Below, one piece after another: positions 6,939-57,267 of a stretch of DNA of 64,000 nt. Origin of the DNA: a virus; the IMG/VR virus record IMGVR_UViG_3300022225_001767; one strand, written 5' to 3'. The position numbers and the translations under genes are program-made. Below the pieces are notes generated by a model, which ran no database searches, was not told the DNA's origin, and saw nothing but the letters and a program-made list of their open reading frames with translations. Position 1 is the stretch's first letter. Every line of letters begins with the position of its first letter.

Positions 6939-7196
6939 ATGAACAATCAAGTAGCAAAACTCATATCAGAACTACTGTCATCCACGTTTAAGCGCACAGA
7001 GAAGTGCATTGATGGACACCACGGCAAGGCGCTGATTGATGCATTGAAGGCGCAAGGTGTTCGTTCTGTACGTAACACTGCGGGAGAGCGACGTGACAAT
7101 ATCAATGCAACATTAAATGCCAGGTATGCGACGTTTACAATCACAGAGTCTACTTGTATGGGACCATTCACTGCCATAGTGATGCAGAAACACTAA
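6939..7196 (+). CDS. Hypothetical protein
   Basis: ORF in the gene run; start uncertain. Confidence 0.6.
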   Translation: MNNQVAKLISELLSSTFKRTEKCIDGHHGKALIDALKAQGVRSVRNTAGERRDNINATLNARYATFTITESTCMGPFTAIVMQKH

Positions 7197-8987: not shown

Positions 8988-9070
8988 TCGTGCGAGGGCG
9001 TTGTTTTCATTGACAACGCCCTCACACCATGAGATACTATTCCTGTCAACACAGCAAAAGGAATACCTCT

Positions 9071-16646: not shown

Positions 16647-18037
16647 ACTACCCAGCGACATCGCTTCGCTCTGATCACTGGGCTTCTACAGTCTAGCTTT
16701 GAAGCTAGGCCGCTTCTTTTTTCTCAGATCCAACAGCAAACTTCGATAGCTCGAAGGCTTTCGCTTTACTAGCTGATTTCTGCTGAGATATGGGGATTAC
16801 CCTTGCGACGATCCCAGCCGCAATTAAGTCTGTCTCACCTGTTTTTGCTATGCTTTTAGCCGCTGAGAAGTCGCGGTTTTGATACGTTCCGCAAGCAGTA
16901 CAGGTGAAATATCTATCGCTCAATGTTAAAACATGGCGTTGGCCGCATTCTGAACAAATCCCTGTGGATTTTTCAAAGCGACCAATTTCGTGATAGAGCT
17001 TACCTTCCAACTCAGCCTTGTATTTCGAGAGCTGGGTAATTAAGCCCATCACATTGTCAGCCACCATACTGCCGTTGAACTTTTGCATCGCTTTCACATT
17101 CAAATCCTCAAACACCAGAATATCAGTTTCATTGGCTATCTGTCGTGACACTTGATGTGCAAAGTCGAGTCTTTGCCGTGAGATTTTGCCGTGAAGCTTA
17201 TTGATGCGTTGCTTGGTCTTTTGCCAGCGATTAGACCCTTTCTTTCGCCTTGCAAGCTGGCGTTGCAAGTGGCTTAATTTCTCTTTTGATTGTTTTAAGA
17301 ACTTCGGGTTGTTGGCAGTAAAGCCATTTGAGCCCACTACCGTTTGCTTAGAGTTAATATCAAAACCTGTGATGCTTTCCAGTAGTTTTTTAGCGGCTTT
17401 ACATTCCACTTCTTGCGTAATGCTGCATTCCCATTTTCCATGACGATACTGGACAGTAACGGTCTTAATTTGGCTCACTAAGTCGCGGTGTAAGATGATG
17501 GGTATTTTACCCACTTTTGGGATGCTAATAGAGTCATTTTCAATGCGTATGCAATTGGAATTGTTCACCGCTCGAAAGCTGTCATTGTGAAGCTTCTTTC
17601 GCTTATAAGAGACTTTATGTTTTGGAAAACGTTGCAACCGACCTTTTGAAAAGGCGTTTTTTAGTGCTGTTTCCAGATCTCTTGCGACTTGCTGGGCTGC
17701 TGCTGAGTCAAACGCCTTTACCCAAGCAAACTCATCAAAAGACTTTAGTTCTTTGAGCAATGAAGCCATATCCCTGTAAAACAAGAACGTCTTATCGTAC
17801 TCGTATCGACGCATTGTTTCAGACAACAGCAGGTTCCAAATGCCACGGGCTGTTGCACCAAACTCAATGAGTCTAGCCTCCTGCTCCAGCGTTGGCTTAA
17901 GCCTGTAATTGTATCTGAGCGTCTTTTTCATATACTGTATAGATTACTGTATATAGTAGAGCTGTCAACCTGAATTTACCGATTCATCCCCGCGACATCA
18001 CTTCGTTCTGATCACGGGGTTTTCTCGGCAACATTAG
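16643..18037 (-). mobile_element. IS200/IS605-family element, tnpB only (non-autonomous)
   Basis: Related subterminal hairpins at ~16651-16683 and ~17988-18019; right end ...GTAGTTCAC; TTTAT next to the inferred left end; no tnpA. Confidence 0.8.
16705..17931 (-). CDS. tnpB: RNA-guided endonuclease TnpB
   Basis: N-terminal YRLKPT.EQ; RuvC GFDIN / FEDL / NRD; Zn finger CSEC..CTAC. Confidence 0.95.
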   Translation of the reverse strand: MKKTLRYNYRLKPTLEQEARLIEFGATARGIWNLLLSETMRRYEYDKTFLFYRDMASLLKELKSFDEFAWVKAFDSAAAQQVARDLETALKNAFSKGRLQRFPKHKVSYKRKKLHNDSFRAVNNSNCIRIENDSISIPKVGKIPIILHRDLVSQIKTVTVQYRHGKWECSITQEVECKAAKKLLESITGFDINSKQTVVGSNGFTANNPKFLKQSKEKLSHLQRQLARRKKGSNRWQKTKQRINKLHGKISRQRLDFAHQVSRQIANETDILVFEDLNVKAMQKFNGSMVADNVMGLITQLSKYKAELEGKLYHEIGRFEKSTGICSECGQRHVLTLSDRYFTCTACGTYQNRDFSAAKSIAKTGETDLIAAGIVARVIPISQQKSASKAKAFELSKFAVGSEKKEAA

Positions 18038-18748: not shown

Positions 18749-18866
18749 TTATCGTTAGCGGGGAGATATTTATCTACAATAATCTCCCCACGCTTATAAA
18801 AAAACATTGACAATACACACAGCATTTGAGACACTAGCCCTGTCAACACAACAACGGAGCAACACC

Positions 18867-19358
18867 ATGATTTCAACCCTAACCAAAGCTGAATGCATCG
18901 ACGCGCTATCTCACTTTGATCGCGATGACATTGTTGTAGCAACATGCACGTTCGGTGACCGCGCTAGAACGATGCAGGCAGTACCACTGGGCGACCTTAC
19001 ATCTGGCTTTATCACCTCATCGAGCTACTCAGACTCTGGGTATGCCGTGGTTGAGGAGGGCGATGAAGATGACAGCGACACCCCTATTCACTTCTTCGAA
19101 CCGGGCGACGTCTCTGAACATATGACGGTAGGCGACTTTCTCGATAACCTAACGGGACTTGATGATGACGACCTTGTTGTCGCTGCGTGGAACTACGGAG
19201 ACCGCGGAAATACGATTCAGGCGATTGGTTTTAATGAGGTTAATGAGGTTTATCTTAACCGCAGCCCATCCTCGGACTCTGGCTACGCCGTAGTTGAGGA
19301 GGGGGATGAGGATGATGACGCAGTGCGCGCGCTGGTCATCAACTACGAGGCCCTTTAA
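18867..19358 (+). CDS. Very acidic protein with internal duplication
   Basis: After repeat 18807; GDR..T.QA...SDSGYAVVEEGDEDD occurs twice. Confidence 0.85.
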   Translation: MISTLTKAECIDALSHFDRDDIVVATCTFGDRARTMQAVPLGDLTSGFITSSSYSDSGYAVVEEGDEDDSDTPIHFFEPGDVSEHMTVGDFLDNLTGLDDDDLVVAAWNYGDRGNTIQAIGFNEVNEVYLNRSPSSDSGYAVVEEGDEDDDAVRALVINYEAL

Positions 19359-19430
19359 GTAACACTATGCGGGTGGCGATTTGCCACCCCTATCAAGACC
19401 TAACACAATCATCGTTCAACAGGAGCTATC

Positions 19431-19799
19431 ATGTCTCACGCATCAACGAACAATAAACAAAAAACAAACCGTGTTAACGTGGGGAAACTGTGGACAGCGC
19501 TGCGAGATAAACTGAATGCGCAATCGTCGCTATTGGCGATGAAGCTTGATGATGTGCTCAAAATGGAACAAAAACTTAATGCTGAAAACGGGGTCTGCGG
19601 CAGTGAGTACATCGCCAAAACCTCCCTGCTCTATCATATTGCGAGCCAGCCGTTAGGTAACATGAACTATAAGTTAGTAGGTCAGATGCGAGATAGCCTT
19701 ATCATTGTGCTTACACTCGTCTTAGCCACTAACCCTGAGAGCGATTACTTATCCGAATACGAAGGTGCCTTGGCAACCATTCTAATGAATCAAGGATAA
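19431..19799 (+). CDS. Hypothetical protein
   Basis: AGGAG RBS; lies just upstream of the candidate antisense RNA. Confidence 0.8.
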   Translation: MSHASTNNKQKTNRVNVGKLWTALRDKLNAQSSLLAMKLDDVLKMEQKLNAENGVCGSEYIAKTSLLYHIASQPLGNMNYKLVGQMRDSLIIVLTLVLATNPESDYLSEYEGALATILMNQG

Positions 19800-19845
19800 G
19801 GATAATGCGCCCTGATGCGTCAACCATCAGTATTGAACTTAAAGT

Positions 19846-19992
19846 CCCGGCACCTGTTGTTTTGTTGACGTAAAACGCCTTCGCCGGGCACCCTTTACGT
19901 CGGCGGCCTGTTGTGTTGACGCCTTCTCGCCGCCGACCCTCACATTGTTGTGACGACAACGCCCGTACCAGGTTATGCTGGCGGGCTTTTTT
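19846..19992 (+). ncRNA. Candidate multi-hairpin antisense RNA against the shared 5' leader
   Basis: Stems CCCGGC/GCCGGG and GTCGGCGGC/GCCGCCGAC enclose CCTGTTGTTTTGTTGACG and CTGTTGTGTTGACG (reverse complement of CGTCAACACAACAG); then a small third hairpin and an intrinsic terminator GCCCG..CGGGC-T6. Confidence 0.6.
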
Positions 19993-20095
19993 GCGCCTGT
20001 TAAATTTGATTATTTTCAATTTAATGAGAAAAACATTGACAACGCACGCATAATTTGAGATGCTCACCTGGTCAACACAACAACGGAGAATGACA

Positions 20096-20281
20096 ATGTC
20101 AGAAAAGAAAATTCAATTAGTTCGCGAGGTCGCGAGCGAAGCAGGCAAGCTTAAACGTAAAATCATCAATGCGCTTGATGAGTCTAACCCAAAATCGTAC
20201 GAAGTGTCTCAGGCAGTCTCACAGCTTATGGCTGATCTTAATGAGCTTGTGCAAAGCGCCCCTGTATCCGACAACGGTTAA
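20096..20281 (+). CDS. Small helical hypothetical protein
   Basis: After repeat 20036. Confidence 0.75.
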   Translation: MSEKKIQLVREVASEAGKLKRKIINALDESNPKSYEVSQAVSQLMADLNELVQSAPVSDNG

Positions 20282-20332
20282 CTGCGCCTGTGCGCCCATT
20301 GTGGCGCACACCCATGTAAAGGAATTCATAAC

Positions 20333-20923
20333 ATGAATAACGCTGTTCCACTATCTGAAGAATACCTTGATGCGCTACGCTCTGGCATCAATGGCAAAAG
20401 CACTGCGTTTGTTTCGTTGTTACTGGTCGCGTTTGACGAGCTGTGCGATGCAGAAACCCTTGAGGCGAATATCGCCGCCATACTTGAAGCCAATGCGGGT
20501 GGTGCCGCGGATGTTAATGCCGTTATCCCCATGGCGGTTCAGTTCCGCACCTGCGCTCGCTCATTTGCTGCCCTACCACCTGAGTACAGTCAGGCTGAGC
20601 TAGAGGACGCGAATGCGTTACTTAAAACCCTGGGTTACACTATTGATTTAGTCACGATATACGCCAACGTCATAAGCCGCATTCATTTTGCTAAAGAGGG
20701 CGTGGTGCTACGCGACTTAGTCAACAACGGTGACACGCCAGAGGATTTGATTGCGCCTTACCCTGACGAAGCCCCTGAAGGCAAGGTGAGAGAAACGTGG
20801 CTGGCACGGGTCAAAGAAGTGGGTCGCGACGACATTGTGGCATGGCATGACGATGTGATGGCTCGCCATGATGATGGGGATGCGATCATTACCATGATAC
20901 TGACGCAATCAGAATGGGAATGA
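20333..20923 (+). CDS. Hypothetical protein
   Basis: AAGGA RBS. Confidence 0.8.
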   Translation: MNNAVPLSEEYLDALRSGINGKSTAFVSLLLVAFDELCDAETLEANIAAILEANAGGAADVNAVIPMAVQFRTCARSFAALPPEYSQAELEDANALLKTLGYTIDLVTIYANVISRIHFAKEGVVLRDLVNNGDTPEDLIAPYPDEAPEGKVRETWLARVKEVGRDDIVAWHDDVMARHDDGDAIITMILTQSEWE

Positions 20924-21089
20924 CACGTTGTGACAACATCCATTTGAAAGGCGCACTGCGCCTTTTTTTGCTTCCCCCTCTGGCGGTTTCGTCGTTTAAT
21001 AATCAACCACTGTGCACAAAATTATTGACAACGCTCTCAGTTTTTGCGACACTTATCCTGTCAACACAACAACAGAGAGAAGCCTCACT

Positions 21090-21434
21090 ATGAGCAACGA
21101 ACAATCACCATCGACTTCAGAGCTTGAGTCCACCGTGTTAGACTCGCTAGCGAACCATCAGCCTGACACCACACTCGTGAAAACACTCGTGGGTGAGTCT
21201 ATGGGAGAGCGCAATGTCTCTGAGGACGCGGACGCCGATGAGCTTCTTTCGGCATATGAAAATTGGGCGCATGCCGTAGGCGAACTTAAACTCGCTGAAG
21301 ACACCTACTACAACGCTGACATGGAGAGCGAGGAAGCGGAGGAGGCAGAGCAAGAAAAAAATGCGGCTGAAAGCGAAGCGTCTAGCTATGCCAATGACGT
21401 CAAACGCGCACTGCGCACCTACCTTGGCAGCTAA
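21090..21434 (+). CDS. Very acidic helical protein, possible paralog of 18398
   Basis: After repeat 21025. Confidence 0.85.
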   Translation: MSNEQSPSTSELESTVLDSLANHQPDTTLVKTLVGESMGERNVSEDADADELLSAYENWAHAVGELKLAEDTYYNADMESEEAEEAEQEKNAAESEASSYANDVKRALRTYLGS

Positions 21435-21548
21435 CGTCAATCGCTATTTCTGACATTGGCCTTGCGTGTGCGAGGTCAAACCCATTGACAACGCTCTCAG
21501 CATCTGAGATACTAACCTTGTCAACACAACAACACAGAGAGCGCGCTC

Positions 21549-23340: not shown

Positions 23341-25512
23341 CTATTCATTCTCTTGTGGCAAGGCCGCTTGCTCACGTGCCGCCTCACACGCGTCTTTAAT
23401 GGCGTTAAACACCTCGTACGCCACGCTATTAAGCTCTGGCGGTGTGTCACTATTGGAAAACCCTTTAGCTTGCGCCAATCGTCCCGAACTGCGTTCAAAT
23501 TGATAGGTGAACGTTTCATCAGACCTATTACCTGTAGACAGGGCGAAAATCACCGCTGAGCCATCCGTACAACGGTCAGCATAGTAGCGTGTGCCTACAC
23601 AGTGATGTTGAGCACGACCTAATGCACGGAGGGCTTTTGTGTCCTCCGGCAGTGTTAGTGTGACGTGTGACGGGAGGCTTTCAGTGATAGTGTCAAGCTG
23701 CGCAATAGCATCGGCCTGATAGAAACGCGCATTGACGGTACTGATTGAGAAGTCACGTTGCTGCTTGTTGCTTAAGTAGCTATGAAATGCTTCACCGTAG
23801 TCTTTCTTAGACGCAAGCCATTTACGCACCAACGCACACTGTTTGGCGCTTTCATCAGGGCAATCTCGTGCAATGAGCGTTGCTAACATACGAAACACAT
23901 CTCGCGCTTCGGTAATGGCGTTATCCATCACAACGGCTACCATTTCATCGTGTGACAAAAAAGCCAAACAGGTGCGTAGTGACGGCGCATCAATGGCAAG
24001 CCCTGCGCGCTTCTGCGCCTGTTTACCTGTGCCTAATGCACTATTAATCTGCGCAAGAAACTGAATGTATCCGTGACGGTCGAGTTTGCCACGTGAATTG
24101 GTAAACACGCTCTGCAATGCGCTTAGTGCGGTCAAGGACTCCGCCTCTTGACTGTCGAACAAGAACTGCACCTCTTGAGGGTGTTTTGAACCAATGAGCA
24201 TTTTGGTCATCGCCTTGGGCGAATTAACACTCTTGAAGTCAAACAGATCATACCCGTAATCATTATGCAAGATGAGGTAGTTCTTTAATGACGTAAGCAA
24301 CGCGAACGCGGGGCTTTCATTGAAGAGTGTTTTATCATAATCCTTATTAGAACTCATAATGCTCTCACGTACACGGTAGAGACACTTAAACGTGCTGTCT
24401 GAGACATTGGGGTGCATCGCGACACGCATTTGGATAGTGTGATCGGGGTCGTACGCCAGCATATCCAAGATGCCCGACGGGACATTACCACTGCTTAGCA
24501 GCTTGCGTACTAATAAGGAGTCAACAGGCTCGCGCTCGATGAATTGTGAAACGACCTCCGGTGACAATGTATCTACGCGGTCAAGAATGGCGTAGCACAA
24601 CGCGTCACAGCTGCCCTGGTATTCCAACAGCATCGCTTCCGCTTGCGCATCTGAGAAATTAAGCCGGTGAAAACCTTCATCAATACCGTATTGAGAGGCG
24701 TCGCACTTAACCAGCTCAATAAAATCGGATTGCTTCATGTCAGCGTTTTTAAATGCGGCGTCGTACACATCCGATACATACCTTGCTCGACAGTCTGTAT
24801 TGGCATTGTTTTGCACATACGCTAAAACTTCGCGAAATTGCTCCATCGTATGTTCGTGATTATCTAGCAACGCAATGCGTATCCGGCATGTGCTATTAGG
24901 CTCTATTTCCAGCGCTAACAGGCGATTAAACAACGAACGTGAACATGCGGCGTTTTCAGCCACTTTGATGTATATGTTGGTATGGAGCGTCTTATCTTCA
25001 ACGCGTGGAACAGCAGCAACGATATCGCTCAATACAGCATCACATGACGCAGCTTGCCCCATTTCAGCAAGCAGCGATGCATTATTCATTGCAATAATAG
25101 CATCAGCACGTTCCCACGGGAATGCGCGATGATTGACTATGTTCTGCGCCATGAAACTTACATTTCCGTCAGAATACTCACCATCAATAACGCGATTGAG
25201 AAGACGGTTATACAGTGCCTCTGGCACTCGCTCGCTGTACAGTGAAAGCACATCCAGCGCAGGATTAAGCGCCAGCAATTCGCTGACCTCATTGTCGCTA
25301 AATGCGGGGTGATTGAGCATCTGTGCCATACTCTCAATACTTTTAGCATTGGCGTAGTACCCCGCCACAAATCTCGGTGTCTCGCTTTCTAATACATCCC
25401 GCATGATACACTTGGGGAAATTAGGTGCACTCAGTGCGACCTGCATCTTTCGCGAGCAGCAGCTATTAAACATTTTTTTTAGTTGCGATGGACTGTAATA
25501 ACGGTGAGTCAT
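23341..25512 (-). CDS. Large helical-repeat protein with PcfJ-like C-terminal domain
   Basis: 723 aa; NP-containing LRV/HEAT-like repeats; LRALGRAQHHCVGT.YY...IFAL...QAKGFSN. Confidence 0.75.
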   Translation of the reverse strand: MTHRYYSPSQLKKMFNSCCSRKMQVALSAPNFPKCIMRDVLESETPRFVAGYYANAKSIESMAQMLNHPAFSDNEVSELLALNPALDVLSLYSERVPEALYNRLLNRVIDGEYSDGNVSFMAQNIVNHRAFPWERADAIIAMNNASLLAEMGQAASCDAVLSDIVAAVPRVEDKTLHTNIYIKVAENAACSRSLFNRLLALEIEPNSTCRIRIALLDNHEHTMEQFREVLAYVQNNANTDCRARYVSDVYDAAFKNADMKQSDFIELVKCDASQYGIDEGFHRLNFSDAQAEAMLLEYQGSCDALCYAILDRVDTLSPEVVSQFIEREPVDSLLVRKLLSSGNVPSGILDMLAYDPDHTIQMRVAMHPNVSDSTFKCLYRVRESIMSSNKDYDKTLFNESPAFALLTSLKNYLILHNDYGYDLFDFKSVNSPKAMTKMLIGSKHPQEVQFLFDSQEAESLTALSALQSVFTNSRGKLDRHGYIQFLAQINSALGTGKQAQKRAGLAIDAPSLRTCLAFLSHDEMVAVVMDNAITEARDVFRMLATLIARDCPDESAKQCALVRKWLASKKDYGEAFHSYLSNKQQRDFSISTVNARFYQADAIAQLDTITESLPSHVTLTLPEDTKALRALGRAQHHCVGTRYYADRCTDGSAVIFALSTGNRSDETFTYQFERSSGRLAQAKGFSNSDTPPELNSVAYEVFNAIKDACEAAREQAALPQENE

Positions 25513-39056: not shown

Positions 39057-39142
39057 CTTGTGTTGTGGCACGGCAATAAAAACATTGACAACTCACACAG
39101 CATTTGAGATACTGTTCCTGTCAACACAACAGGAACTTTATT

Positions 39143-40048: not shown

Positions 40049-40118
40049 GTCGCCTTATTACCGGCTCTTGGTATTGTCTGCAACACAGGCAGCAACCGCT
40101 TTAATGCTAATTTTTATA

Positions 40119-40170
40119 CCTTGGTGATGTGCTGACACACTCACCCCAGCCCGCCATGCGCGGGCTTTTT
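40119..40170 (+). ncRNA. Hairpin plus terminator module carrying anti-leader sequence, copy 1
   Basis: GGTGA-TGTG-CTGA-CACA-C-TCACC, then GCCCGC..GCGGGC-T5; TGTGCTGACA is the reverse complement of TGTCAGCACA. Confidence 0.55.
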
Positions 40171-42447: not shown

Positions 42448-42448
42448 A

Positions 42449-42504
42449 CCTTGGTGATGTGCTGACACGCTCACCACCAGCCCGCCACTGGCGGGCTTTC
42501 TTTT
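42449..42504 (+). ncRNA. Hairpin plus terminator module, copy 2
   Basis: CCTTGGTGATGTGCTGACACGCTCACC..GCCCGCCACTGGCGGGC-TTTCTTTT. Confidence 0.55.
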
Positions 42505-44970: not shown

Positions 44971-45081
44971 GCCGCAGTTGCCACACCTCTTATCGGCTGC
45001 AAAAAAACACAAAAAACTGTTGACAACATACACAGGTTTTGGGATACTAATCCTGTCAGCACAACAACACAGGAAAACATC

Positions 45082-45480
45082 ATGAGCTTCATGCGTGAAC
45101 AAGCACTTAAAGCCCGTCGCCAAGTACTAAACCTCCACCTTAAAAAGTTGGATGCAGCCTTTCGCTCGCTTAAAAAAGACAAAGGTTTCGCGGCAGCACG
45201 TCTTACCAAAGATCACCACGACTCTGGCCAGGTGCGCTCTGAACTTGCTGAGGAAAAACTGGGCAAAGGGGCGCTAGATAGCGGTAACCTTTATGCGTTT
45301 TGTGGCATCATTAAGCGTGGGTGGACGACGCTACCAAATCAAACGTCTATCTTTTGGAATAGCACGGTTCCTAGCTCTCGCAAGATCATCGTCGACACGA
45401 TGCAAGACGCAGGGCTTGTTGTCACGAACCCTGACGCTCCTCACGAAGCGGTTGTGGTAAAGTTAAGTGATGCGGCATAG
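45082..45480 (+). CDS. Hypothetical protein
   Basis: After repeat 45020. Confidence 0.8.
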   Translation: MSFMREQALKARRQVLNLHLKKLDAAFRSLKKDKGFAAARLTKDHHDSGQVRSELAEEKLGKGALDSGNLYAFCGIIKRGWTTLPNQTSIFWNSTVPSSRKIIVDTMQDAGLVVTNPDAPHEAVVVKLSDAA

Positions 45481-45531
45481 CCGCATTCACTGCTCTTCAT
45501 TTTACTAACGCAACACTATAGGCAAAAAACA

Positions 45532-45834
45532 ATGAGTACTCCTACAGAAGCCATCGAAAATGCAACATTTGATTGCGCTGAACCCGTCATGAATGCGCTA
45601 CCTGATAGCGTTAATCACGCTAACCCCAATGGGGCACGCGCGAAGCAGGGATGGCGCGCCCTTCATGGCTACGCAAAACACATTTACGGAAGCAGTGGAG
45701 GCGAACCTGTCGAGCAGGGAGTACGCGACTTGCTATCTGATCTCCAGCACACATGCGAACATCTTAACATCGATTTCATGGAAGCGCTGGAGCGTGCTAG
45801 TTCCGTCTTCAATAGTGAGAAAGAACATCCATAA
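45532..45834 (+). CDS. Hypothetical protein (DLLSDLQH helical motif)
   Basis: ORF in the gene run. Confidence 0.75.
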   Translation: MSTPTEAIENATFDCAEPVMNALPDSVNHANPNGARAKQGWRALHGYAKHIYGSSGGEPVEQGVRDLLSDLQHTCEHLNIDFMEALERASSVFNSEKEHP

Positions 45835-45910
45835 ATGTCTCTTTTTTATTGACAACACTCTCAGCTTTTGAGATACTAACCCTGTCAACACAACGGTCTC
45901 GGAGAGCACT

Positions 45911-46429
45911 ATGAAAACATTGTTTGTCCCACTTGAGTTAATTACGCCAAATAGCGCGCAAATTGCTGGGCAAAGCATCAAAGCAACCGTATGCCAGAGC
46001 AAAATGTTTTCTTCCGATAGCATGCTTTCGCCTAACGTTAACTTAAAAGGCTACGATGCTCTCTCGCTACTTGGCGCTATCCTTGGTGATACTGGGGGCA
46101 ATACATCACCTGACGCTATCCCTGATGGTCGTGCTATTTTCGATGTAACGTTCTCGGCCTTTTACATCAACGACCTTAACGAACCCGAATACATTGATAT
46201 ATGTGTACAACGACAATGCCTCCCAAAGGACGCGCAGATCACTGAACGTGATACCACCATCATTGACGCGGTATTTTATGCCAAAATGGATGTGGTTGGC
46301 GATGTCAATTGCCCACTTGACGAGGATATTGTCAACGAGGCTCTCGCAGAATATAAGGAAGAACACCTGTCTGCGGCTCTTGGCGCGGTCGGCTGGCGTG
46401 TTAGCATTACACCCAAAGCCCTCAAGTAA
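45911..46429 (+). CDS. Hypothetical protein
   Basis: After repeat 45849. Confidence 0.8.
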   Translation: MKTLFVPLELITPNSAQIAGQSIKATVCQSKMFSSDSMLSPNVNLKGYDALSLLGAILGDTGGNTSPDAIPDGRAIFDVTFSAFYINDLNEPEYIDICVQRQCLPKDAQITERDTTIIDAVFYAKMDVVGDVNCPLDEDIVNEALAEYKEEHLSAALGAVGWRVSITPKALK

Positions 46430-46492
46430 CACGGTTTATATTTTTAGGTGAAGCCGTTTCGCTTCACCTCAACTCAACACCAAGGCGTCATT

Positions 46493-47140
46493 ATGAACTC
46501 TACAACCCTTTTAGCTTCACTTCGCATTGATGAAGAGCAAACGTTACTGACCCCTCAGCAACAGCTTGCACTCATTAAACGCACCACTGCACTGGCACAA
46601 AAAACGCCATCTCGTCTTACGCCAGATACTAATAAGGCATGGCAATTAGGCCGCTACTGGCTACCCCTTATCTCAAAACAAGCGACTCACGGCCATAAGC
46701 CTTCTCTCTCGGCACTACTTGAGATCGATAACATCATTGGGAGTCCAGACAGTGACACATGGTCTGATACTCTTCTAGGTTGGCTTTCTGACGCAGGGCT
46801 TGACGGTATCAGCAAGGCGGAGGTGGCTGCAATTGACGATATGAACGACACCGCAGAAAATGAAAAAATTGAGCAAGCTATCGCCACGGCCTCACCGTTA
46901 GCGCGCTATATCTGGGCAGACATTAATCCCAATGCAATAATGACCTATGCATATCAAGCATGTTCAAAGACGATGCTCCAGCGCTTATGGGTGCTCGACA
47001 GTACGGTCATTGATATCATGGTCGACAATGATGATTTCAGTTTAGCCAGCCTAACCGCTGCTGAACGTGCCTTAATGATGGCACTTTCCGATAGTCAACA
47101 CGACATTATTAAAGCGCTGGCCAGCCAGGCATCTAATTAG
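46493..47140 (+). CDS. Hypothetical protein, paralog of the 27461 C-terminal domain
   Basis: KPSL.A...I.N.I; SPL.RY.W.D.NP. Confidence 0.85.
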   Translation: MNSTTLLASLRIDEEQTLLTPQQQLALIKRTTALAQKTPSRLTPDTNKAWQLGRYWLPLISKQATHGHKPSLSALLEIDNIIGSPDSDTWSDTLLGWLSDAGLDGISKAEVAAIDDMNDTAENEKIEQAIATASPLARYIWADINPNAIMTYAYQACSKTMLQRLWVLDSTVIDIMVDNDDFSLASLTAAERALMMALSDSQHDIIKALASQASN

Positions 47141-47251
47141 ATTTTTATTACCCATAAAACCAAGGTTGTTTGCAACCTTGGTTGTTTTTTTATTGACAAT
47201 TAACACAGATTTTGAGATACTAACCCTGTCAGCACAACAGAGGTTACTCGC

Positions 47252-47590
47252 ATGAATACCACCTACGCTAAACGCGTTCTTACGCCCAAGTCAGACATTG
47301 TCGCCATCTACATTGGTTTTATCGGTGATACGCTTTATCTTTTTGAGTGCAACACCAAAAATCAAACGGTGCGTCAGTTTAAACTTAGCCTAAAAGACCG
47401 CACCATCCCTGATGAGCATCTTGCTAAAGCCATTGCCGATAAAGGATTGGCATTCAATCAAGTCAAGGTTTACTCTCACCCTGATTACATTGAGTATTTC
47501 AAGCGCGGGGCAGCAGGTACAAAGTCGATTAAACAAGACTTTTGGGTACGCACTACCGCAAGAAACCCCAACATGAAACGTGTCGCATAA
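47252..47590 (+). CDS. Hypothetical protein
   Basis: After repeat 47193. Confidence 0.8.
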   Translation: MNTTYAKRVLTPKSDIVAIYIGFIGDTLYLFECNTKNQTVRQFKLSLKDRTIPDEHLAKAIADKGLAFNQVKVYSHPDYIEYFKRGAAGTKSIKQDFWVRTTARNPNMKRVA

Positions 47591-47673
47591 CGGCACGTTC
47601 TTCATCTTTTTTGTTGACAATCAACACAGATTTTGAGATACTGATCCTGTCAGCACAACACAGGTAAAAAACG

Positions 47674-48288
47674 ATGAACACACCTCTTTCAGATACCGCA
47701 AAACAATACGCATTCATGGCACTAATGTTTCGCCAGCGTTTACTTCCTCGCTGGAATCGCATGTACCTTATCGAAAACGAAAATGTACTAGAGCATACTG
47801 CCGAAGTCACGATCACAGCACTGCTTTTAGGGTTAATCTCTAAGCATGAGTTTGGCAAAACCATCGACATAGGCAAGCTTCTATCTTACGCTATCCTGCA
47901 TGACGGTGAAGAAACGCTAACCACGGATTTGCCTTCCCCTATCAAACGCTCTTCACCTGAGTTCTACGATATGTGGAAAGCCCTTGAAGTTGAAAACGAA
48001 AAACTGCTTTTCAGCAAACTTCCTGATTACATGCGCAGCGAAATCGAAGCCATTTGCCATGACAAGTCTTATGAGACTGAATTGGTAAAAGCCGCAGATA
48101 TTTATGTCGCGCATAACAAAGCATCACGCGAGTTTGCGATGGGTAACGTACTAGAGTTCAAAGTTGCCGTTAAAAAATGCGAAGCGGCTTACCTTGAATA
48201 CGCAGAAAAATACCCTGAGTTAGCGCGCCTACATGAATACTTTGGCGGCTGCATGCACATGAGCCTTGATGAACTTATCGAGGCATAA
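47674..48288 (+). CDS. HD-domain 5'-deoxynucleotidase (YfbR-like)
   Basis: LPRW...ENVLEH...ILHD.EE..TDLPSPIK...VKAAD. Confidence 0.85.
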   Translation: MNTPLSDTAKQYAFMALMFRQRLLPRWNRMYLIENENVLEHTAEVTITALLLGLISKHEFGKTIDIGKLLSYAILHDGEETLTTDLPSPIKRSSPEFYDMWKALEVENEKLLFSKLPDYMRSEIEAICHDKSYETELVKAADIYVAHNKASREFAMGNVLEFKVAVKKCEAAYLEYAEKYPELARLHEYFGGCMHMSLDELIEA

Positions 48289-48365
48289 AAAACGGGGGCA
48301 ACGCCCGCCCCCACATTCACAAAAAATCACTCACAACAAGTCTCACTAAAAGTGAAAATAGACTT

Positions 48366-48890
48366 ATGAAAACACGCATCACACGCACACTAATGAGCGC
48401 AGCCTTAGCCATGAGCGCTTTATCTGTTAGTCATACCGCACTGGCAGAAGGCGAAACGATAAAAGGCATCGTGCCTATTGAACAAGCCAAAAACGCTAAT
48501 GTGAAAACATGCCTTAAAGCCGTTACAGATATTTCTAACTTTCTTATCGGTGATGGTGAGCATGGCGCGCATGGCACTTGGGCAACAGATTCACAAGATT
48601 CACATTATACTGCCGTCATTGAGCGCGCGTATAGTGACGGCTCAATGACCATGAATATTGTTGCCGCCCCCACCGCAGACGGCAAATGTGTCGCCCAGTA
48701 TACCAAACATATCATTTTTGAAGAAAACTGCATGAGTGCGCTAAAAACCTTTGATGGCATCGAAATAAAAGGCTCACTGGCGCAAAATGTGACATACATC
48801 AAGCACAATTTAGTTGATATGTATATGAATCCTATTGGCAAAAAAAATGAGTATTGCCATGTGGTCAGAAAAGAAGTGATGACATTCTAA
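48366..48890 (+). CDS. Exported Cys-containing protein
   Basis: Signal peptide ending ALA; 4 Cys. Confidence 0.8.
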   Translation: MKTRITRTLMSAALAMSALSVSHTALAEGETIKGIVPIEQAKNANVKTCLKAVTDISNFLIGDGEHGAHGTWATDSQDSHYTAVIERAYSDGSMTMNIVAAPTADGKCVAQYTKHIIFEENCMSALKTFDGIEIKGSLAQNVTYIKHNLVDMYMNPIGKKNEYCHVVRKEVMTF

Positions 48891-48955
48891 GTATTGAACT
48901 CACATTGCCGAAAGCGCCTTGTGGCGCTTTTGCATCACGTTTACAGGAATCTAAC

Positions 48956-49180
48956 ATGCCTTCAAACGCAAAAAATCTGTTAAGTGAGTGGAGTGCTCAC
49001 AAAGCAAGCCAACTTATACCTTGGCGGTATAACCTTCGTTCAGAAACCCTTTATGCCAACCTAGACAACAAAAAGGTTAAAATGAACAGAAAGATCCGCA
49101 GTATATTCCCCAGAGGGAAGCGGTTTGATCGCATCGCTAAAGATTGTGTTGCTGTACCTAAAGATCTTCAGGACGAGTGA
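48956..49180 (+). CDS. Small basic protein
   Basis: AGGA RBS. Confidence 0.65.
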   Translation: MPSNAKNLLSEWSAHKASQLIPWRYNLRSETLYANLDNKKVKMNRKIRSIFPRGKRFDRIAKDCVAVPKDLQDE

Positions 49181-49300
49181 TGAAAATAACATAGCGCAGT
49201 AGTTAGCCACATAAAAAGGCGCTTTCTCTACTTTCCTGTTGACAACACTCTCAGGTTTTGAGATGCTAACCCCTGTCAGCACAACAACAGGAACACCACG

Positions 49301-49855
49301 ATGAAAATCACATCCGCTTTTTTACCAAGCTACGCATTCTCAGTCGACATTTCACAGACGGTACTTTCCTGTATTGCCGATACCATAACCGCACCATTCG
49401 ATAACGAAGACTTTTCATCGTTTGCTTCGCTTGATGATGCGCTTAACCACATTGTCACACAAACACAGCAACGCCTTGCCACAGAGCAAGATAAGGTGCT
49501 AAGTCAGGCAGAGTCAACATTTGACTCGCTTGTCGATACAACAATCAATCACTTCTATGACGGCTTTTCGCCGATTGCGCTTTACGCCGACCGCATTACC
49601 CTAAACCACAGCTACAATGTACCTATGCACCACTTGATGCTCTGTAGTGCATGTACGATGGTAAATACATTTGTTGCGCTTTACGTTGATGTGCTTATCA
49701 AAGAGGCCGTTCGCTTTGACGCCGCCGCTTGCACATTGAAAGGCAGCGTTAAGGGGGATTCTACCTTATTCCTCAAAAACCTTAACGACATACTTCAGCA
49801 ATCGATGGGTTACGTCGAATATGACATAAGCCGCCTTTCTCAACTAGGCCTGTAA
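49301..49855 (+). CDS. Hypothetical protein, paralog family with 42586 and 56623
   Basis: After repeat 49239; TMVNTFVALYVD. Confidence 0.85.
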   Translation: MKITSAFLPSYAFSVDISQTVLSCIADTITAPFDNEDFSSFASLDDALNHIVTQTQQRLATEQDKVLSQAESTFDSLVDTTINHFYDGFSPIALYADRITLNHSYNVPMHHLMLCSACTMVNTFVALYVDVLIKEAVRFDAAACTLKGSVKGDSTLFLKNLNDILQQSMGYVEYDISRLSQLGL

Positions 49856-49960
49856 TGCACAACACGCGCCCTTTCCGCGAGGGCGCGCCGCCAAAAAAAT
49901 TGACAACGCACTCAGTTTTTGAGATACTGTTCTTGTCAGCACAACAACAAGGGTTACATC

Positions 49961-50638
49961 ATGGGTTGGGAATTTTGCAGCTACACAACGGACATTGATA
50001 AGGTCAACGAACCTCAGCTTTTTGCGGGCAATGAAGTTGGGTTGCCTACGCGACTTAATAATACACTTTATATTGACGAGAACGATGCAGCCAACGCGCT
50101 TTGCGATGAACTCGACAAGCTAGGCTGCATGTACGCAACATATATTGACTTCGAGTCGAGCAGCACTCCCCTCAAGAACGCACGCGTAACCCGCGCCCAT
50201 GAGACATTTAAAAAACGCTCTGAGCGCCAGTGCGAAGTGACATTGGCAGCAATACAAAAGGCAGAAAACCTTAAAACGCGAACATGCCCTAAGTGCAACA
50301 AGCGCGTTTCTATGCAGCGCTATCACCGTAACTTTAGCTACTTTAGGTCGAGTGTTAGTCACTCGCCTTACCATTCGTCATTCGGGGGTAGCTGCCCTCA
50401 TTGTGGCGACGACACACTGCCGCTAACGCAAGCCCAACGCCAATCTATCGAGAAGGCAAGAGTAAGAGCCGCAGACGCTTATGACGTATGGCAGAACGAG
50501 AAAGAAAAGGCCGTTCGCGCCATGCATAAGGCGGGCAAGCTTGGTACTAAAGCCGTGGTGGTGGGTATGCTGCATGAGATTGATGCGCGCCCCTACAACG
50601 ATGAACACTTTGATGAAGATGAGTACGATGATTATTGA
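49961..50638 (+). CDS. Zn-ribbon protein with acidic tail
   Basis: After repeat 49900; CPKC...CPHC. Confidence 0.8.
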   Translation: MGWEFCSYTTDIDKVNEPQLFAGNEVGLPTRLNNTLYIDENDAANALCDELDKLGCMYATYIDFESSSTPLKNARVTRAHETFKKRSERQCEVTLAAIQKAENLKTRTCPKCNKRVSMQRYHRNFSYFRSSVSHSPYHSSFGGSCPHCGDDTLPLTQAQRQSIEKARVRAADAYDVWQNEKEKAVRAMHKAGKLGTKAVVVGMLHEIDARPYNDEHFDEDEYDDY

Positions 50639-50740
50639 TCATCGTACGTTTTTCTTACAGACAACCTAAACAACCTATTGACAAATAACACAGATTTTGC
50701 GATACTTACCCTGTCAGCACAACAACACAGGCAACGCATT

Positions 50741-51442
50741 ATGACCACCTATCATCAACTTGCATTCCATGCGGCTTTTCGCCCAGCAAAATACCACTCG
50801 AACCACGCTGATTTGTTGCGTGAGCGTGCCAGCGATTTTGTTAATCCTGCTGCACGCATTGCATTAACTTACCCTGCATTAACACGCGTGCTTGATCACG
50901 CGGCTAACGCCTTTTCTTCGACCTCTGTTGTTGATGTATTTAGTGATGCGAAACGTTCAGCACAACGCATTGACGGCCTCTTTCTCATGTTGGTGTGTGC
51001 GGAGCGTCTTAATTTAGAAAACCTCAATACGCAACCCCGATCACCTGTCAGTGAAGCGGACATCAAGCGGGCCGAGGCGTTACTTGATGACTTAGGTAAA
51101 CTTAGAAAAGCCATCGATATTGCCAACAAAGGTATTACAGCAGACCACCTCACCTACGTAACAGGTACGCCTTGCCCTGCACAAGCGACACCTGATGACG
51201 TAAAGCTTATGTGGGTGGTATTTATGTTTCACGATATGTGTGTGAATTATAGCAACGGCATGTCCACGATTGGGCTACTCGACCCCAATGCGCCACCAGA
51301 ATGTAAAGCCCTGCGAGAACGTACCGCCAAGGTGATGGAAGACGCTTTTTTTCATCTTGCTACCCACTACATCGCATTTTCAGAGGTTGCAGCGATACGC
51401 GGTTCGCAGTCTACTCACACGGCACCACCATTGGTACAGTAA
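50741..51442 (+). CDS. Hypothetical protein
   Basis: After repeat 50678. Confidence 0.8.
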   Translation: MTTYHQLAFHAAFRPAKYHSNHADLLRERASDFVNPAARIALTYPALTRVLDHAANAFSSTSVVDVFSDAKRSAQRIDGLFLMLVCAERLNLENLNTQPRSPVSEADIKRAEALLDDLGKLRKAIDIANKGITADHLTYVTGTPCPAQATPDDVKLMWVVFMFHDMCVNYSNGMSTIGLLDPNAPPECKALRERTAKVMEDAFFHLATHYIAFSEVAAIRGSQSTHTAPPLVQ

Positions 51443-51559
51443 TCGCCAAGCGGCAGTCGTAAACATGATTATTGTGAGCGACTGTTGCCAAAACCATTGA
51501 CAACTATCACAGATTTTGCGATACTGATCCTGTCAGCACAACACATCAGGGTAACCATC

Positions 51560-52183
51560 ATGGCACTATTTCAAGCGCTTGCGCAACTTGTTAACGGTAA
51601 AACGTCACCACAAGAAAACATTGACTCCAATCAACCTGTTGATACAGGTGTGACTATCATTTCGGGCATAGATCCTCGCGCCACCAGCGAAGCGAAGCTT
51701 ATTGCACCTGCGCCACTACCGCACATTAGCCGTCGCTCACTGAAGCGTGTAAAGCACCGCGTTCCCGTGCCTGAAACATGCCCTTACTGCGGTCATGAGC
51801 ATGTCGAGTTAGTGGAGCATAAAACCGTTTATAAGCGTAGCTATGGAGAGTGGCCTTACCTTTACCTATGCCGAAATCAAGAATGCGGTGCCTACGTAGG
51901 TGTTCATCCTCACACTGATATACCGCTTGGCACGCTGGCTGATGCGGCCACTCGCGAGGCACGCAAAGCCAATAAAAGCTGGTTTATGCGCCTTATGAAG
52001 CGTCAGCAGTGCGGTCTTAATATTGGCTATCTATGGTTGTCTCAAGAAATGAACATTCGCGCTGAGCAATGCCACTGGTCAATGTTTGACGTTGAATTGT
52101 GCGAGCAGGCAGGCGCTATCTGCAAGGCAAAATTTGAAGATGGTACGATCCTCATGCCGAAGCACTTCTCTCGCTCAAAATAA
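51560..52183 (+). CDS. DUF3268-like zinc-finger protein
   Basis: CPYCG...YLC...CGAYVGVH..TDIPLGTLAD..R.AR. Confidence 0.8.
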   Translation: MALFQALAQLVNGKTSPQENIDSNQPVDTGVTIISGIDPRATSEAKLIAPAPLPHISRRSLKRVKHRVPVPETCPYCGHEHVELVEHKTVYKRSYGEWPYLYLCRNQECGAYVGVHPHTDIPLGTLADAATREARKANKSWFMRLMKRQQCGLNIGYLWLSQEMNIRAEQCHWSMFDVELCEQAGAICKAKFEDGTILMPKHFSRSK

Positions 52184-52190
52184 CCTCTTT

Positions 52191-52244
52191 TTGGTGCTGT
52201 GCTGACATACACACCCTGCCCGCCACGCGCGGGCTTTTCTCTTT
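52191..52244 (+). ncRNA. Hairpin plus terminator module, copy 3
   Basis: TTGGTGCTGTGCTGACATACACACC..GCCCGCCACGCGCGGGC-TTTT. Confidence 0.55.
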
Positions 52245-52331
52245 CTTAACATTGGTTATTTTCAATTTTAACATTGACTTAACCCTGATTATAAGAGACA
52301 ATAAACAGGTCAACACAACAAGGTATACTCC

Positions 52332-53108
52332 ATGGGAAAAACCACTAAGCCCCCTCTCTCAAATGTCACGCCTAAACCGACAGGCACCACCACGATATTC
52401 GACGAGTTATGCCATCTGCCGAAAGCCCAACAACAATGGGAAAACCGCACTTACATCAGTTTTGATGATGGCGACATCAGAGACAGCCTTGATATCCTGA
52501 CGCTTGAGAATGAGCACCTCTGCGGCCAGAGCGAGCCAGAATTTACTACAAGAGCAGGTGGACGCTATCAAGACACCTCGCTTACTGATTTTGTGGGCAT
52601 TGGCCTTAATCGTGACGATAGCGCCTTGTCGTTTGAAATAACCAATGCCGCAGACAGCGTTTTTGCGCCTGTCGAGTTAGCCGAGACATTTGTATGGTAC
52701 GTTGTGATTGATACGCGCACCAGCACCACAACCGTACACTATGCAGACTCGCATTTATCGATGGCATTTTCGCAAGCCACATGGGCGCAATGGCAGCAAT
52801 GGCTGATAACGTACCAACCGTTGCTGCATGTGCATGAGTACCGACAATTTATCTCTCCTTATTCACCTAACTACGAGGAAAAAGCGATGTTATTTTTAGT
52901 TGTTTATCACCCTGAAGGGGAAGAACCGCGTTCTGCGCTGGCTGAAGCGCCTAATGAAGATGTGGCATGGGATGCCGTTGCTGAGCGTCACCACCTTAAT
53001 GCTGGCACCTCGCCTGAAGACGAGGAGCTTTATCTCGACCACACCAAAGTGCTAGACAGCATGCTTAAAGAGGCGCAAGTACCTTATACATTAACATCGA
53101 CGCGTTAA
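52332..53108 (+). CDS. Hypothetical protein
   Basis: After repeat 52274. Confidence 0.75.
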   Translation: MGKTTKPPLSNVTPKPTGTTTIFDELCHLPKAQQQWENRTYISFDDGDIRDSLDILTLENEHLCGQSEPEFTTRAGGRYQDTSLTDFVGIGLNRDDSALSFEITNAADSVFAPVELAETFVWYVVIDTRTSTTTVHYADSHLSMAFSQATWAQWQQWLITYQPLLHVHEYRQFISPYSPNYEEKAMLFLVVYHPEGEEPRSALAEAPNEDVAWDAVAERHHLNAGTSPEDEELYLDHTKVLDSMLKEAQVPYTLTSTR

Positions 53109-53195
53109 TATCTGCATGAATTTTCTTGGCTGTGTTGACAACGCACTCAGACTTTGGGATACTAACACTGTCAACACAACCAAGGAGAAAGCCTC

Positions 53196-53351
53196 ATGGC
53201 ACAATCTAACGAAAATAAAGTTTGGATGGCGTATAACCACAACGACACGCCATTAATGAAATCACCCGCATCGCTTGAGGATGCCAGGGCTGAAGCTGAC
53301 GCGTACACCTACGCGACAGGCAATGCTTCTTATGTAGACAAGGCTAAATAA
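53196..53351 (+). CDS. Small protein (51 aa), absent from the ORF track
   Basis: After repeat 53135; AAGGAG RBS; MAQSNENKVWMAYNHND... Confidence 0.75.
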   Translation: MAQSNENKVWMAYNHNDTPLMKSPASLEDARAEADAYTYATGNASYVDKAK

Positions 53352-53551
53352 GAAAAGGCTCATAAGAGCCGTTTCTTCACGCATTACAAAATCGCAAAAG
53401 CGAATATAGATATGTGGTGATACGTTGCAAAGAAGACGATTGCCAACTCGCCTTTTTTTGCATATAAAACAAACACCAATCACTTTTTGTATTGACAACA
53501 CTCTCAGCTTTTGAGATACTAACCCTGTCAGCACAACTTAGGAGCATCACC

Positions 53552-53893
53552 ATGCCTGCAATCGATACGCAACAGCAACGCGACAACGCCATCAAAGGTA
53601 AAACTCTGGCCTTTATCGGTGACGCCAATTGGGACCTCTATGCGCAACCTGATGGACGTCTTTGGGCCATTCCAAAACCAGACTGCCTTGGCTGTCATAT
53701 GAGTCCTTTTGGAGACAGACATCACGTCAAGAGACTGATGGACAAGGGTTACTTCACTTCCACGCCGACGGATGCAGGACTTGCACTAATGGAGGGGCTT
53801 TACACAAGGCTGATTACCGATTCGAAAGGGAAGCGTTTTGGGATTTTAGGCTTCGACATACCCGACGGCCTTAGGACAGCTTTCGCAGCCTAA
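53552..53893 (+). CDS. Hypothetical protein
   Basis: After repeat 53492. Confidence 0.8.
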   Translation: MPAIDTQQQRDNAIKGKTLAFIGDANWDLYAQPDGRLWAIPKPDCLGCHMSPFGDRHHVKRLMDKGYFTSTPTDAGLALMEGLYTRLITDSKGKRFGILGFDIPDGLRTAFAA

Positions 53894-54002
53894 ATATGAG
53901 GTGCGCGGCTGGTTAATTATGGGTCAGCCGCATTTTCTATTGACAACACTCTCAGAGTTTGAGATACTTATCTTGTCAGCACAACATTAAAGGTATATCA
54001 CA

Positions 54003-54368
54003 ATGGAACAGGTTCTTTTTCTTGCATACGCTATCACAGGCATGGACTACGAGTACGAGAACGAAGCGTTGCTTCTCCCTACGCCAGATCTCGATGCAGC
54101 GAAAGCGGCATGCTGGGATTTTCTTTTTGCCAATGATATCATGGGCAACGACGATGAGTACGCGTTGGCGCGTGTAGACAAAGTTGTAGTGGGTCAACGT
54201 GACAGCACCGAAGTGGTGTGGCATTCGCGTGAGGAGCAAAAGCAAGTGGACCTTGAGATTGCAGCCGCAGAACAAGCGCTTGCACACAAAGAGCGCAACC
54301 TCGACAATGAGGCGTGGCTGTATTGGGACATGGAGCAGGCGCTTATGGGCCAGCGGGTGATGCATTAA
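54003..54368 (+). CDS. Acidic hypothetical protein
   Basis: After repeat 53940. Confidence 0.8.
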   Translation: MEQVLFLAYAITGMDYEYENEALLLPTPDLDAAKAACWDFLFANDIMGNDDEYALARVDKVVVGQRDSTEVVWHSREEQKQVDLEIAAAEQALAHKERNLDNEAWLYWDMEQALMGQRVMH

Positions 54369-54413
54369 TCGCCCCCTAATGTAATACTTTTTCAACCAGA
54401 GGGCGCACATCAC

Positions 54414-54908: not shown

Positions 54909-54989
54909 ACATAATGCAAAAAAACATTGACAACGCTCTCAGCTTTTGGGATACTGTTCCTGTCAGCACAACAACACAGGAACAGTACC

Positions 54990-55502: not shown

Positions 55503-55512
55503 CACCAACATT

Positions 55513-55538
55513 AAAGCCCGCATTTTACGGGCTTTTTT
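55513..55538 (+). terminator. Intrinsic terminator
   Basis: AAAGCCCG-CATTTTA-CGGGC-T6. Confidence 0.75.
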
Positions 55539-55609
55539 ACGCAAAACCCATTGACAAAAAACACAGATTTTGAGATACTGTTCCTGTCAGCACAACACGG
55601 GTTACCACC

Positions 55610-55918: not shown

Positions 55919-55953
55919 ACCACAACAACACTTTTCGTCACTAGGGAAACAGC

Positions 55954-56547: not shown

Positions 56548-56622
56548 TTACGGCACACTATTGACAACCCTCTCATATCTGTGAGAGGATTATTTTCGTC
56601 AACACAACAACGAGAATGCATT

Positions 56623-57186: not shown

Positions 57187-57201
57187 CACGCTTTAGTTTC
57201 A

Positions 57202-57254: not shown

Positions 57255-57267
57255 GACTCTTTTTTGG

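Follow-up and report, generated by a model that had tools for sequence, protein, structure and literature searches.

The 64-kb window considered here, meaning the whole 64,000-nt stretch of DNA that was analysed, carries short and densely packed genes on the + strand, most of which are preceded by a promoter of one repeated class. One of these promoters heads an operon of two genes, and neither of the two ORFs has a Pfam or PHROG family. Downstream of the second ORF, with its stop codon at 19797–19799, lies a stretch (19811–19992) made up of a series of hairpins that ends in an intrinsic terminator (Table 1). This terminator is common to the operon and to the hairpin element. A first-pass annotation had described two GC-rich stems with loops complementary to the start of many mRNAs, followed by a small hairpin and a terminator, at 19846–19992. 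The sequence is as described, including the exact reverse complement of the mRNA start in the second loop and the near match to longer leader variants in the first.

Table 1. Positions of the hairpin element, its parental operon and related features in the window
Feature	Position	Strand	Basis
Promoter TTGACA-N17-GACACT and leader GTCAACACAACAACGGAG of the parental operon	18807–18866	+	repeat class
Two ORFs of the parental mRNA: 18867–19358 (163 aa) and 19431–19799 (122 aa)	18867–19799	+	
Hairpin H0: stem CTGATG/CATCAG, 7-nt loop CGTCAAC	19812–19830	+	fold
AU-rich linker, H0 to H1	19831–19845	+	
Hairpin H1: 6-bp GC stem, CCCGGC (19846–19851) / GCCGGG (19883–19888)	19846–19888	+	fold
Hairpin H2: 9-bp GC stem, GTCGGCGGC (19899–19907) / GCCGCCGAC (19929–19937), 21-nt loop CTGTTGTGTTGACGCCTTCTC	19899–19937	+	
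Hairpin H3: GTTGT-GACG-ACAAC; degenerate anti-leader TTGTTGTGAC, duplex −17.5 kcal/mol	19947–19960	+	
Intrinsic terminator: GCCCG..CGGGC stem (19961–19986) and six T, −19.0 kcal/mol	19961–19992	+	
Next promoter of the repeat class, with leader GTCAACACAACAACGGAG (an example of the predicted targets)	20036–20096	+	sequence
Hairpin-plus-terminator copies of the second class (D14)	40118–40170, 42448–42500, 52188–52240, 57201–57253	+	repeat family, terminator calls

The two larger hairpins present sequence that is antisense to the leaders of the repeated promoter class. In H2, the first 13 nt of the loop (19908–19920) are the exact reverse complement of GTCAACACAACAG, which corresponds to bases 1–13 of the mRNA. 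The H1 loop contains CCTGTTGTTTTGTTGACG at 19853–19870; CCTGTTGTTTTGTTGAC of this loop complements the long leader variant GTCAACACAACAACAGG with one mismatch, and GUUGACGU is exposed by an inner stem (GUUUU/AAAAC). The loops include UUGA, a YUNR tetranucleotide, for which the first-pass annotation points to a putative U-turn. The H0 loop has the other polarity and carries the sense motif GCGTCAAC, a copy of the start of the tag that complements GUUGACG(C) of the H1 and H2 loops. The stretch has only a modest folding z-score (−1.98), and the opposite strand folds just as well (−2.60). Because folding energy favours neither strand, the strand call rests on the T-tract, the orientation of the genes and the paralog described below.

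Transcription of the element

Between the stop codon of the second ORF and the terminator at 19961–19992 there is no other terminator or promoter call. There are no + strand terminators between 17975 and 19942, and none from the promoters at 18336 and 18807 up to position 19961. A promoter belonging to the 19811–19992 element itself was not found at the consensus level; a weak TTGGCA-N16-AAGGAT, picked out by eye inside the end of the ORF, was not counted as one. Given that the element has no promoter call of its own and that no terminator intervenes, it would arise as the 3' portion of the 18842 transcript, in line with the earlier proposal that it is the tail of the unit driven from 18807.

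The minus strand was also considered. Nothing like TTGACA-N17-GATACT precedes the two loop sites on that strand, so the loop sites are not additional copies of the promoter, a point that the first-pass annotation had made as well. The arrangement expected of a cis-encoded antisense RNA of the CopA, FinP or RNAI type was not found either: no leader or gene start lies opposite 19846–19992, and the minus strand has no promoter there.

The evidence from RNA libraries comes as assembled contigs only, from which ends, strand and abundance are not readable and in which uncovered parts are uninformative. The bin at 19814–20014 has low cover by such contigs in two studies (X15, 4.05; X19, 3.02). The signal in a third study (X17) is that of the paralog, which is represented by a metatranscriptome contig at a depth of 19.6. 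One RNA-library contig begins exactly at the tag (GTCAACAC/GTCAACACAACAG), which is a weak hint.

A promoter class with a shared 5' tag

When the promoter filter is applied, the window holds 52–53 promoter-plus-leader units that share one sigma-70-type promoter. The first-pass annotation had spoken of ~57 transcripts; the shared leader class stands, and the count has to be lowered to these units. The promoter consists of TTGACAAC, a spacer of 17 nt in which CWCAG is conserved, an extended −10 of the form TGnGATACT and six bases. The conserved mRNA start GTCA(A/G)CACAAC follows, then a Shine–Dalgarno sequence (SD) and then the ATG. The opening G of the tag box lies 7 nt past the −10, i.e., at the expected transcription start. 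Leaders (5' UTRs) are 22–30 nt long across the units, and the predicted leaders, for example CAACACAACAAC, are rich in ACA and ACAA. Allowing up to two mismatches, the 13-mer GTCAACACAACAG occurs 59 times in the window versus 2.08 ± 1.34 times in shuffled sequence.

The tag comes in two variants, with 38 units carrying GTCAACAC (A-type) and 14 carrying GTCAGCAC (G-type). The variants are clustered in space. Twelve of the 14 GTCAGCAC leaders fall within 45055–58349 (45–58.4 kb), and elsewhere GTCAACAC predominates.

An inverted repeat across the +1 and the SD was tried as a feature of the whole class and rejected (mean 4.44 vs 4.18 ± 0.12 in controls). An inverted repeat of at least 7 bp is found in three units only, at 54948–54990 (12 bp), 39106–39140 (8 bp) and 9030–9065 (7 bp). 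In these three, the bases just 5' of the +1 complement the SD region, and their sequences suggest that the SD would be masked in read-through transcripts and not in promoter-initiated ones. A further hairpin is seen at 743–790, where GCCTGTG-TTTGTTGA-CACAGGC is followed by CTGTGTTTGTTGTT; the pair is G/U-rich and resembles an anti-leader. The gene at 823 has an atypical promoter (TTGACA-N17-TAATAT), and this feature overlaps its −35.

Complementarity between loops and leaders

A duplex scan of the + strand across the whole window, run with five leader variants, places H2 (−25.7 kcal/mol) and H1 (−24.5 kcal/mol) at ranks 1 and 2 against a background with a mean of −6.3 and a standard deviation of 2.6 kcal/mol. 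No + strand site makes a better anti-leader than these two. Ranks 3 and 4 are the leaders of two genuine minus-strand promoters. By simple arithmetic, an exact match to the 13-mer is expected by chance ~0.002 times per 64 kb when both strands are counted.

The H1 and H2 loops complement bases 1–13 or 1–17 of 53 leaders. When the H2 loop is paired with each of these, the best duplex opens at mRNA base 1 in all 53 and contains 11–13 pairs, and the seed CUGUUGUGUUGAC pairs with GUCAACACAACAG of the leaders. A U at the variable position of the loop pairs with both A-type and G-type tags. The complementarity ends at the predicted +1 G and does not extend into promoter sequence upstream of it. At the other end, the duplex extends over the first SD bases in leaders of the ...ACAGG(AG) subclass and stops short of the SD for most leaders (those of the ...ACAACAACGGAG types). 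Of the first-pass idea of an antisense match running into the ribosome-binding site, complementarity from mRNA base 1 onward is supported, and the SD is reached in part, in some subclasses.

The energies of the H2–leader duplexes have a median of −19.5 kcal/mol (range −14.6 to −22.4 across the 53 leaders), and the cost of opening the seed is ~4–7 kcal/mol. Random 28-nt windows have their 1st percentile at −19 kcal/mol, so that duplex energy by itself is unexceptional, and specificity would for this reason need an accessible 5' end together with the context of the loop. What is unusual is an exact, end-anchored match that recurs across a whole promoter class. Part of the loop is left out of the pairing. 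None of the leaders complements eight conserved loop bases, GCCYTCTY, and the complement of the 3' half of the loop (GAGAAGGC and variants) shows no enrichment at leaders.

Conservation of the element in related sequences

Orthologs of the locus were identified in marine metagenome assemblies (L003 and L023–L029), where ORF 19431–19799 is present at 87–98% amino acid identity. Across three lineages, the 147 nt from H1 through the terminator show 1, 3 and 0 differences, and the adjacent ORF (369 nt) shows 15, 44 and 31 differences in the same three. The 4 differences observed in the 147 nt compare with ~36 expected from the rate of the adjacent ORF. The linker at 19831–19845 is variable, with up to 4 changes in 15 nt.

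The anti-leader bases and all of the stems are invariant across the orthologs, and H2 is wholly so. H1 has two loop changes in one ortholog lineage, both outside the anti-leader. The H0 stem is invariant, and its loop has one change, C to T, with which a G–U pair is still possible. The terminator differs only in the length of its T-run. Because the orthologs are too close, there is no covariation within the locus. The 19811–19992 stretch is a conserved, structured + strand element under purifying selection.

A free-standing paralog and a family of hairpins

The same element has a second locus of this kind ~40 kb upstream of the window, which was reached by walking contigs (L039:6865–7153). This paralog has its own promoter (TTGACA, 17 nt, extended −10 GAGGAT) with a start that reads GTCGAC..., and it consists of two hairpins (B1 and B2) and a terminator with no ORF. 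It folds with a z-score of −5.8 against shuffled sequence. There is no leader downstream of it on its strand.

The B2 loop is identical to the 21-nt loop of H2, and the two stems are very different (GCTGCACGCT/AGCGTGCAGC in B2). In six of nine aligned stem pairs both bases are replaced and 100% are still paired; slid registers give 0–1. On a third stem, B1 presents a loop that is almost the same. The family formed by H2, B1 and B2 can be described as a GC stem of 8–10 bp around the loop CTGTTGTGTTGACGCCYTCTY. Since an identical loop sits on an unrelated but fully paired stem, selection has kept a hairpin that presents a fixed loop. The compensated stems argue for a nucleic acid that is single-stranded; RNA is what the promoters and terminators indicate. 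All copies are on the transcribed strand and upstream of a terminator.

A covariance model built from H2 and B2 scores H2 at 67 bits, B2 at 70–71 and B1 at 40.5, with nothing else significant in 326 kb. H1, which has a loop longer by 10 nt, is not found by this model. The individual loops match subclasses of leaders: H2 and B1 start with CCTG (for ...ACAGG), B2 starts with CTCTG (for ...ACAGAG), and H1 has an extra GTT/TTT (for ...ACAACAGG). The paralog also contains a mimic of the tag, ACGTCAACAC (6988–6997), which in the minimum-energy fold closes the first anti-leader in a long helix. Judging from the predicted folds, such tag mimics (H0 and the one in the paralog) may gate the RNA or act as a built-in sponge.

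Another type of hairpin occurs directly 5' of four terminators in the window (D14 in Table 1). It has the form GGTGATGTG-CTGA-CACACTCACC and contains GTGCTGAC, the complement of the GTCAGCAC tag. With G-type leaders its predicted duplexes reach −17 to −22 kcal/mol, against −10 to −13 kcal/mol with A-type leaders, and its seed is half buried in a 9-bp stem with a CUGA loop. As a member of the H2/B2 model it was rejected, being a weak match (12.8 bits, E ~0.9). From their sequence, these hairpins are possibly a separate, second class of anti-leader. The first-pass annotation had envisaged one master RNA, and this part of it does not hold: there is a paralog with its own promoter, and the second class matches GTCAGCAC at four terminators.

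Proposed mechanism and alternatives

The reading favoured here, with a confidence slightly better than even, is that the + strand of 19811–19992 is a functional RNA module, the member borne in a 3' UTR of a family of anti-leader RNAs specific to this element, and that it represses translation by pairing in trans. Transcription from the promoter at 18807 would produce the module as the untranslated 3' tail of the operon, from which processing may release it. Its H1 and H2 loops hold the complement of the invariant mRNA 5' end (GUCARCACAACA...) and would pair in trans with bases 1 to 12–17 of the leaders, reaching the first SD bases in several leader subclasses. The predicted outcome is less translation initiation, and probably a change in the stability of the mRNAs, across the entire promoter class at once. 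The accumulation of a discrete RNA, the pairing in trans and the repressive effect are what we infer from these features.

Repression would be the most likely outcome because a duplex in a leader of 22–30 nt lies inside the landing site of the ribosome. Because the RNA comes from the same promoter class as its predicted targets, it could work as delayed negative feedback or as an immunity-like brake. Stoichiometry is a difficulty for one RNA that has to face dozens of mRNAs from strong promoters, unless the several copies contribute jointly. The folds also suggest that the H0 motif and its counterpart in the paralog might pair with the anti-leader and keep it closed. No RNA chaperone (Hfq or ProQ) is found by Pfam among the 97 ORFs of the window.

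An RNA that pairs with these leaders might instead protect or activate them, with a duplex that starts at base 1 hiding the 5' end from decay that depends on it (RNase E sensing, RppH), which would stabilise the whole class, or from a nuclease of the host or a rival. Base-paired 5' ends stabilise bacterial mRNAs, and such a role would suit both the exact start of pairing at the first transcribed base in 53 of 53 leaders and the end of the duplex before the SD in most of them. It is nonetheless unlikely, given that a 5' duplex of 12–17 bp in so short a leader falls within the ribosome footprint, that the first SD bases are covered in one subclass and that C/A-rich segments of this kind are enhancers that pairing would silence (PMC3879156). 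The pairing might also be purely in cis, either with the leader of the same operon, which would close the 5' and 3' ends and autoregulate ORF 18867, or, on transcripts extending past the terminator, with the leader at 20071 that comes next. In the read-through version, only promoter-initiated copies of the next gene would be translated. The position in a 3' UTR ~150 nt before the next promoter and leader is what such an arrangement would look like, and the four D14 hairpins are likewise just before terminators with promoters next. The D14 loops, however, mismatch the tag type of their own operon in three of the four cases, and the paralog, which starts from a promoter of its own, lacks an ORF and has no leader after it on its strand, is incapable of either cis mode and still keeps the identical loop. 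Together the two cis versions are quite improbable.

The remaining explanations do without pairing to the leaders. The 21-nt loop could be a site for an RNA-binding protein, or the motif could be an operator in double-stranded DNA that serves as a decoy or in looping, with the complementarity to leaders as a by-product. Eight loop bases that leader pairing leaves unaccounted for would find a use under this explanation. Conservation of the promoter spacer and the +1 region goes further than sigma-70 requires, a hint at a DNA-binding factor, and TGTCAA at the +1 is the inverse of the −35 TTGACA. Yet a DNA operator needs no flanking stems, and these are kept through six double changes between the paralogs; all copies have the same orientation to transcription and sit inside transcribed 3' regions, and the complementarity ends at the predicted +1. 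A binding site of either kind thus has a distinctly low probability. It is very unlikely that the hairpins merely stabilise the transcript or accompany the terminator, with the loop as a functionless remnant of an inverted duplication of promoter and leader. The modest z-score and the equal folding of the opposite strand would fit with a remnant, as would the tendency of the promoters in this element to recombine and move cassettes. Against it, a remnant would not be expected to show 4 differences in place of ~36, to keep a loop identical while its stems are replaced or to match the leader without reaching the promoter sequence upstream of the +1.

Comparison with known regulatory RNAs

A search of 19000–20500 with Rfam cmscan on both strands, with E up to 10, returned only four matches at chance level to unrelated families, and neither C4 nor GcvB was among them. 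The first-pass annotation did not recognise the architecture from described systems, and no described RNA family matches it.

The enterobacterial GcvB RNA offers one likeness. ACA motifs rich in C and A enhance translation when they lie upstream of the SD, and GcvB silences many mRNAs that have them through its G/U-rich seed (PMC3879156). In the element described here, a G/U-rich seed is likewise matched to C/A-rich leader sequence that lies shortly before the SD of many mRNAs. Unlike GcvB, which has its seed in a single-stranded linker, the element has its seed in hairpin loops, and predicted pairing starts from mRNA base 1. Its predicted targets also share one promoter and an identical tag and reside on the same mobile element, and the RNA gene is multi-copy.

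Mobile elements are themselves a source of comparable RNAs. [quoted passage not shown] Like the c4 RNA of phages P1 and P7 (immI) and the related CI RNA of P4, the module is a folded RNA of a mobile element with exposed segments that would act in trans on the mRNA of the same element and keep genes off. The resemblance to the C4 family, suggested by the complementarity of loops and leaders, is a functional one only. The c4 RNA, which is cut from a longer transcript, controls one operon (icd-ant), whereas the element would address ~50 mRNAs per 64 kb.

Small RNAs from the 3' ends of mRNAs are an established class that includes CpxQ, which is processed, and DapZ and MicL, which have a promoter inside the upstream coding sequence (PMC9438474). 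The module resembles them in its location between the stop codon and the terminator of the mRNA itself, with a shared terminator hairpin and U-tail. It differs from CpxQ, DapZ and MicL in that the seed is in large hairpin loops and a free-standing paralog exists.

The use of stem-loops to present the pairing bases recalls the antisense RNAs that control plasmids. In the pairs CopA/CopT, RNAI/RNAII and FinP/traJ, the antisense RNA is made from the strand opposite a single target, is fully complementary to it and pairs through kissing loops. Shared with CopA, FinP and RNAI are the stem-loops, a YUNR-type motif (UUGA in this case) and a predicted target at the translation start region of the element's own genes. 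The module is, in contrast, encoded away from its predicted targets, has complementarity of 12–17 nt and has many targets, the 5' ends of which are not predicted to be hairpins. In function, a parallel can be drawn to the T4 RegB endoribonuclease, a protein that cuts GGAG in early mRNAs. Both would bring about a class-wide post-transcriptional shut-off by means of one short motif shared among leaders. RegB is, however, a protein nuclease that recognises the SD, and the module is an RNA directed at a 5'-terminal tag.

The element combines traits of GcvB, of c4 and CI and of the 3'-UTR-derived small RNAs and is a member of none of these groups. What is new is a uniform promoter and tag on all predicted targets, predicted pairing anchored at base 1, a conserved 21-nt loop on interchangeable stems and the existence of several copies and types.

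The host element and what the pairing would mean

The window belongs to a very large and nearly uncharacterised element. No relatives were found among phage records (megablast and tblastn) or plasmids (megablast). The promoter–tag pattern gave single chance matches only in IMG/VR and GTDB genomes, and the loop 20-mer is absent from IMG/VR. DNA that is ~99% identical is present in marine metagenome runs from 15 studies, which indicates that the element is widespread, and scaffolds that bear the element measure 223 kb and 447 kb (loci L033 and L038).

Most of the coding content is unfamiliar, as 91 of the 97 ORFs of at least 70 aa in the window have no Pfam family. The Pfam matches are a YfbR-like/HD 5'-deoxynucleotidase, DUF3268, GmrSD_C, NUDIX, HNH_4, a PcfJ-like protein of 723 aa (23341–25512, minus strand) and two TnpB/OrfB_IS605 proteins (16705–17931, minus strand, and 62771–64000). 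Distant relatives reached through the PcfJ-like protein (39–40% identity) do not have the GTCAAC tag. In one of them (L042:1–18116, 39% identity), the repeated promoter is of another kind (TTGACATTGCGGTTTATCCGTGTGATAAT type) and the leaders, CACACACAGAGG for instance, are C/A-rich. The tag may be younger than the design with a uniform promoter.

Relatives differ from the window by whole cassettes of promoter and ORF: 21024–21483 is missing in L003, and 20097–21434 is missing in L027 and L028. The junctions of the cassettes fall within the repeated promoter and leader, in L027 right after CAACACAACAAC. The repeats of ~60 nt seem to be recombination points at which gene cassettes are shuffled.

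A wider proposal can be put forward tentatively, at somewhat less than an even chance. In a giant element of this kind, one type of promoter would tag the mRNAs of hundreds of genes. Multi-copy anti-tag RNAs, free-standing or on 3' ends, would be specific for the type of tag (a U-type pairs with both tags and a C-type with GTCAGCAC only), and mimics of the tag would possibly gate them. Such a system would amount to a master switch made of RNA only, or to an immunity system, able to silence the entire accessory gene set and perhaps that of incoming relatives.

If the pairing is real, one code of 13 bases would control ~50 genes per 64 kb of this element. No simpler design for class-wide post-transcriptional control would be known, with a uniform tag set against a uniform anti-tag. 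It would give an experimental handle on how giant plasmids and phages time or silence their cargo and would suggest an RNA basis for immunity or incompatibility among related elements. The tag and anti-tag would also constitute a natural orthogonal pair for synthetic gene control.
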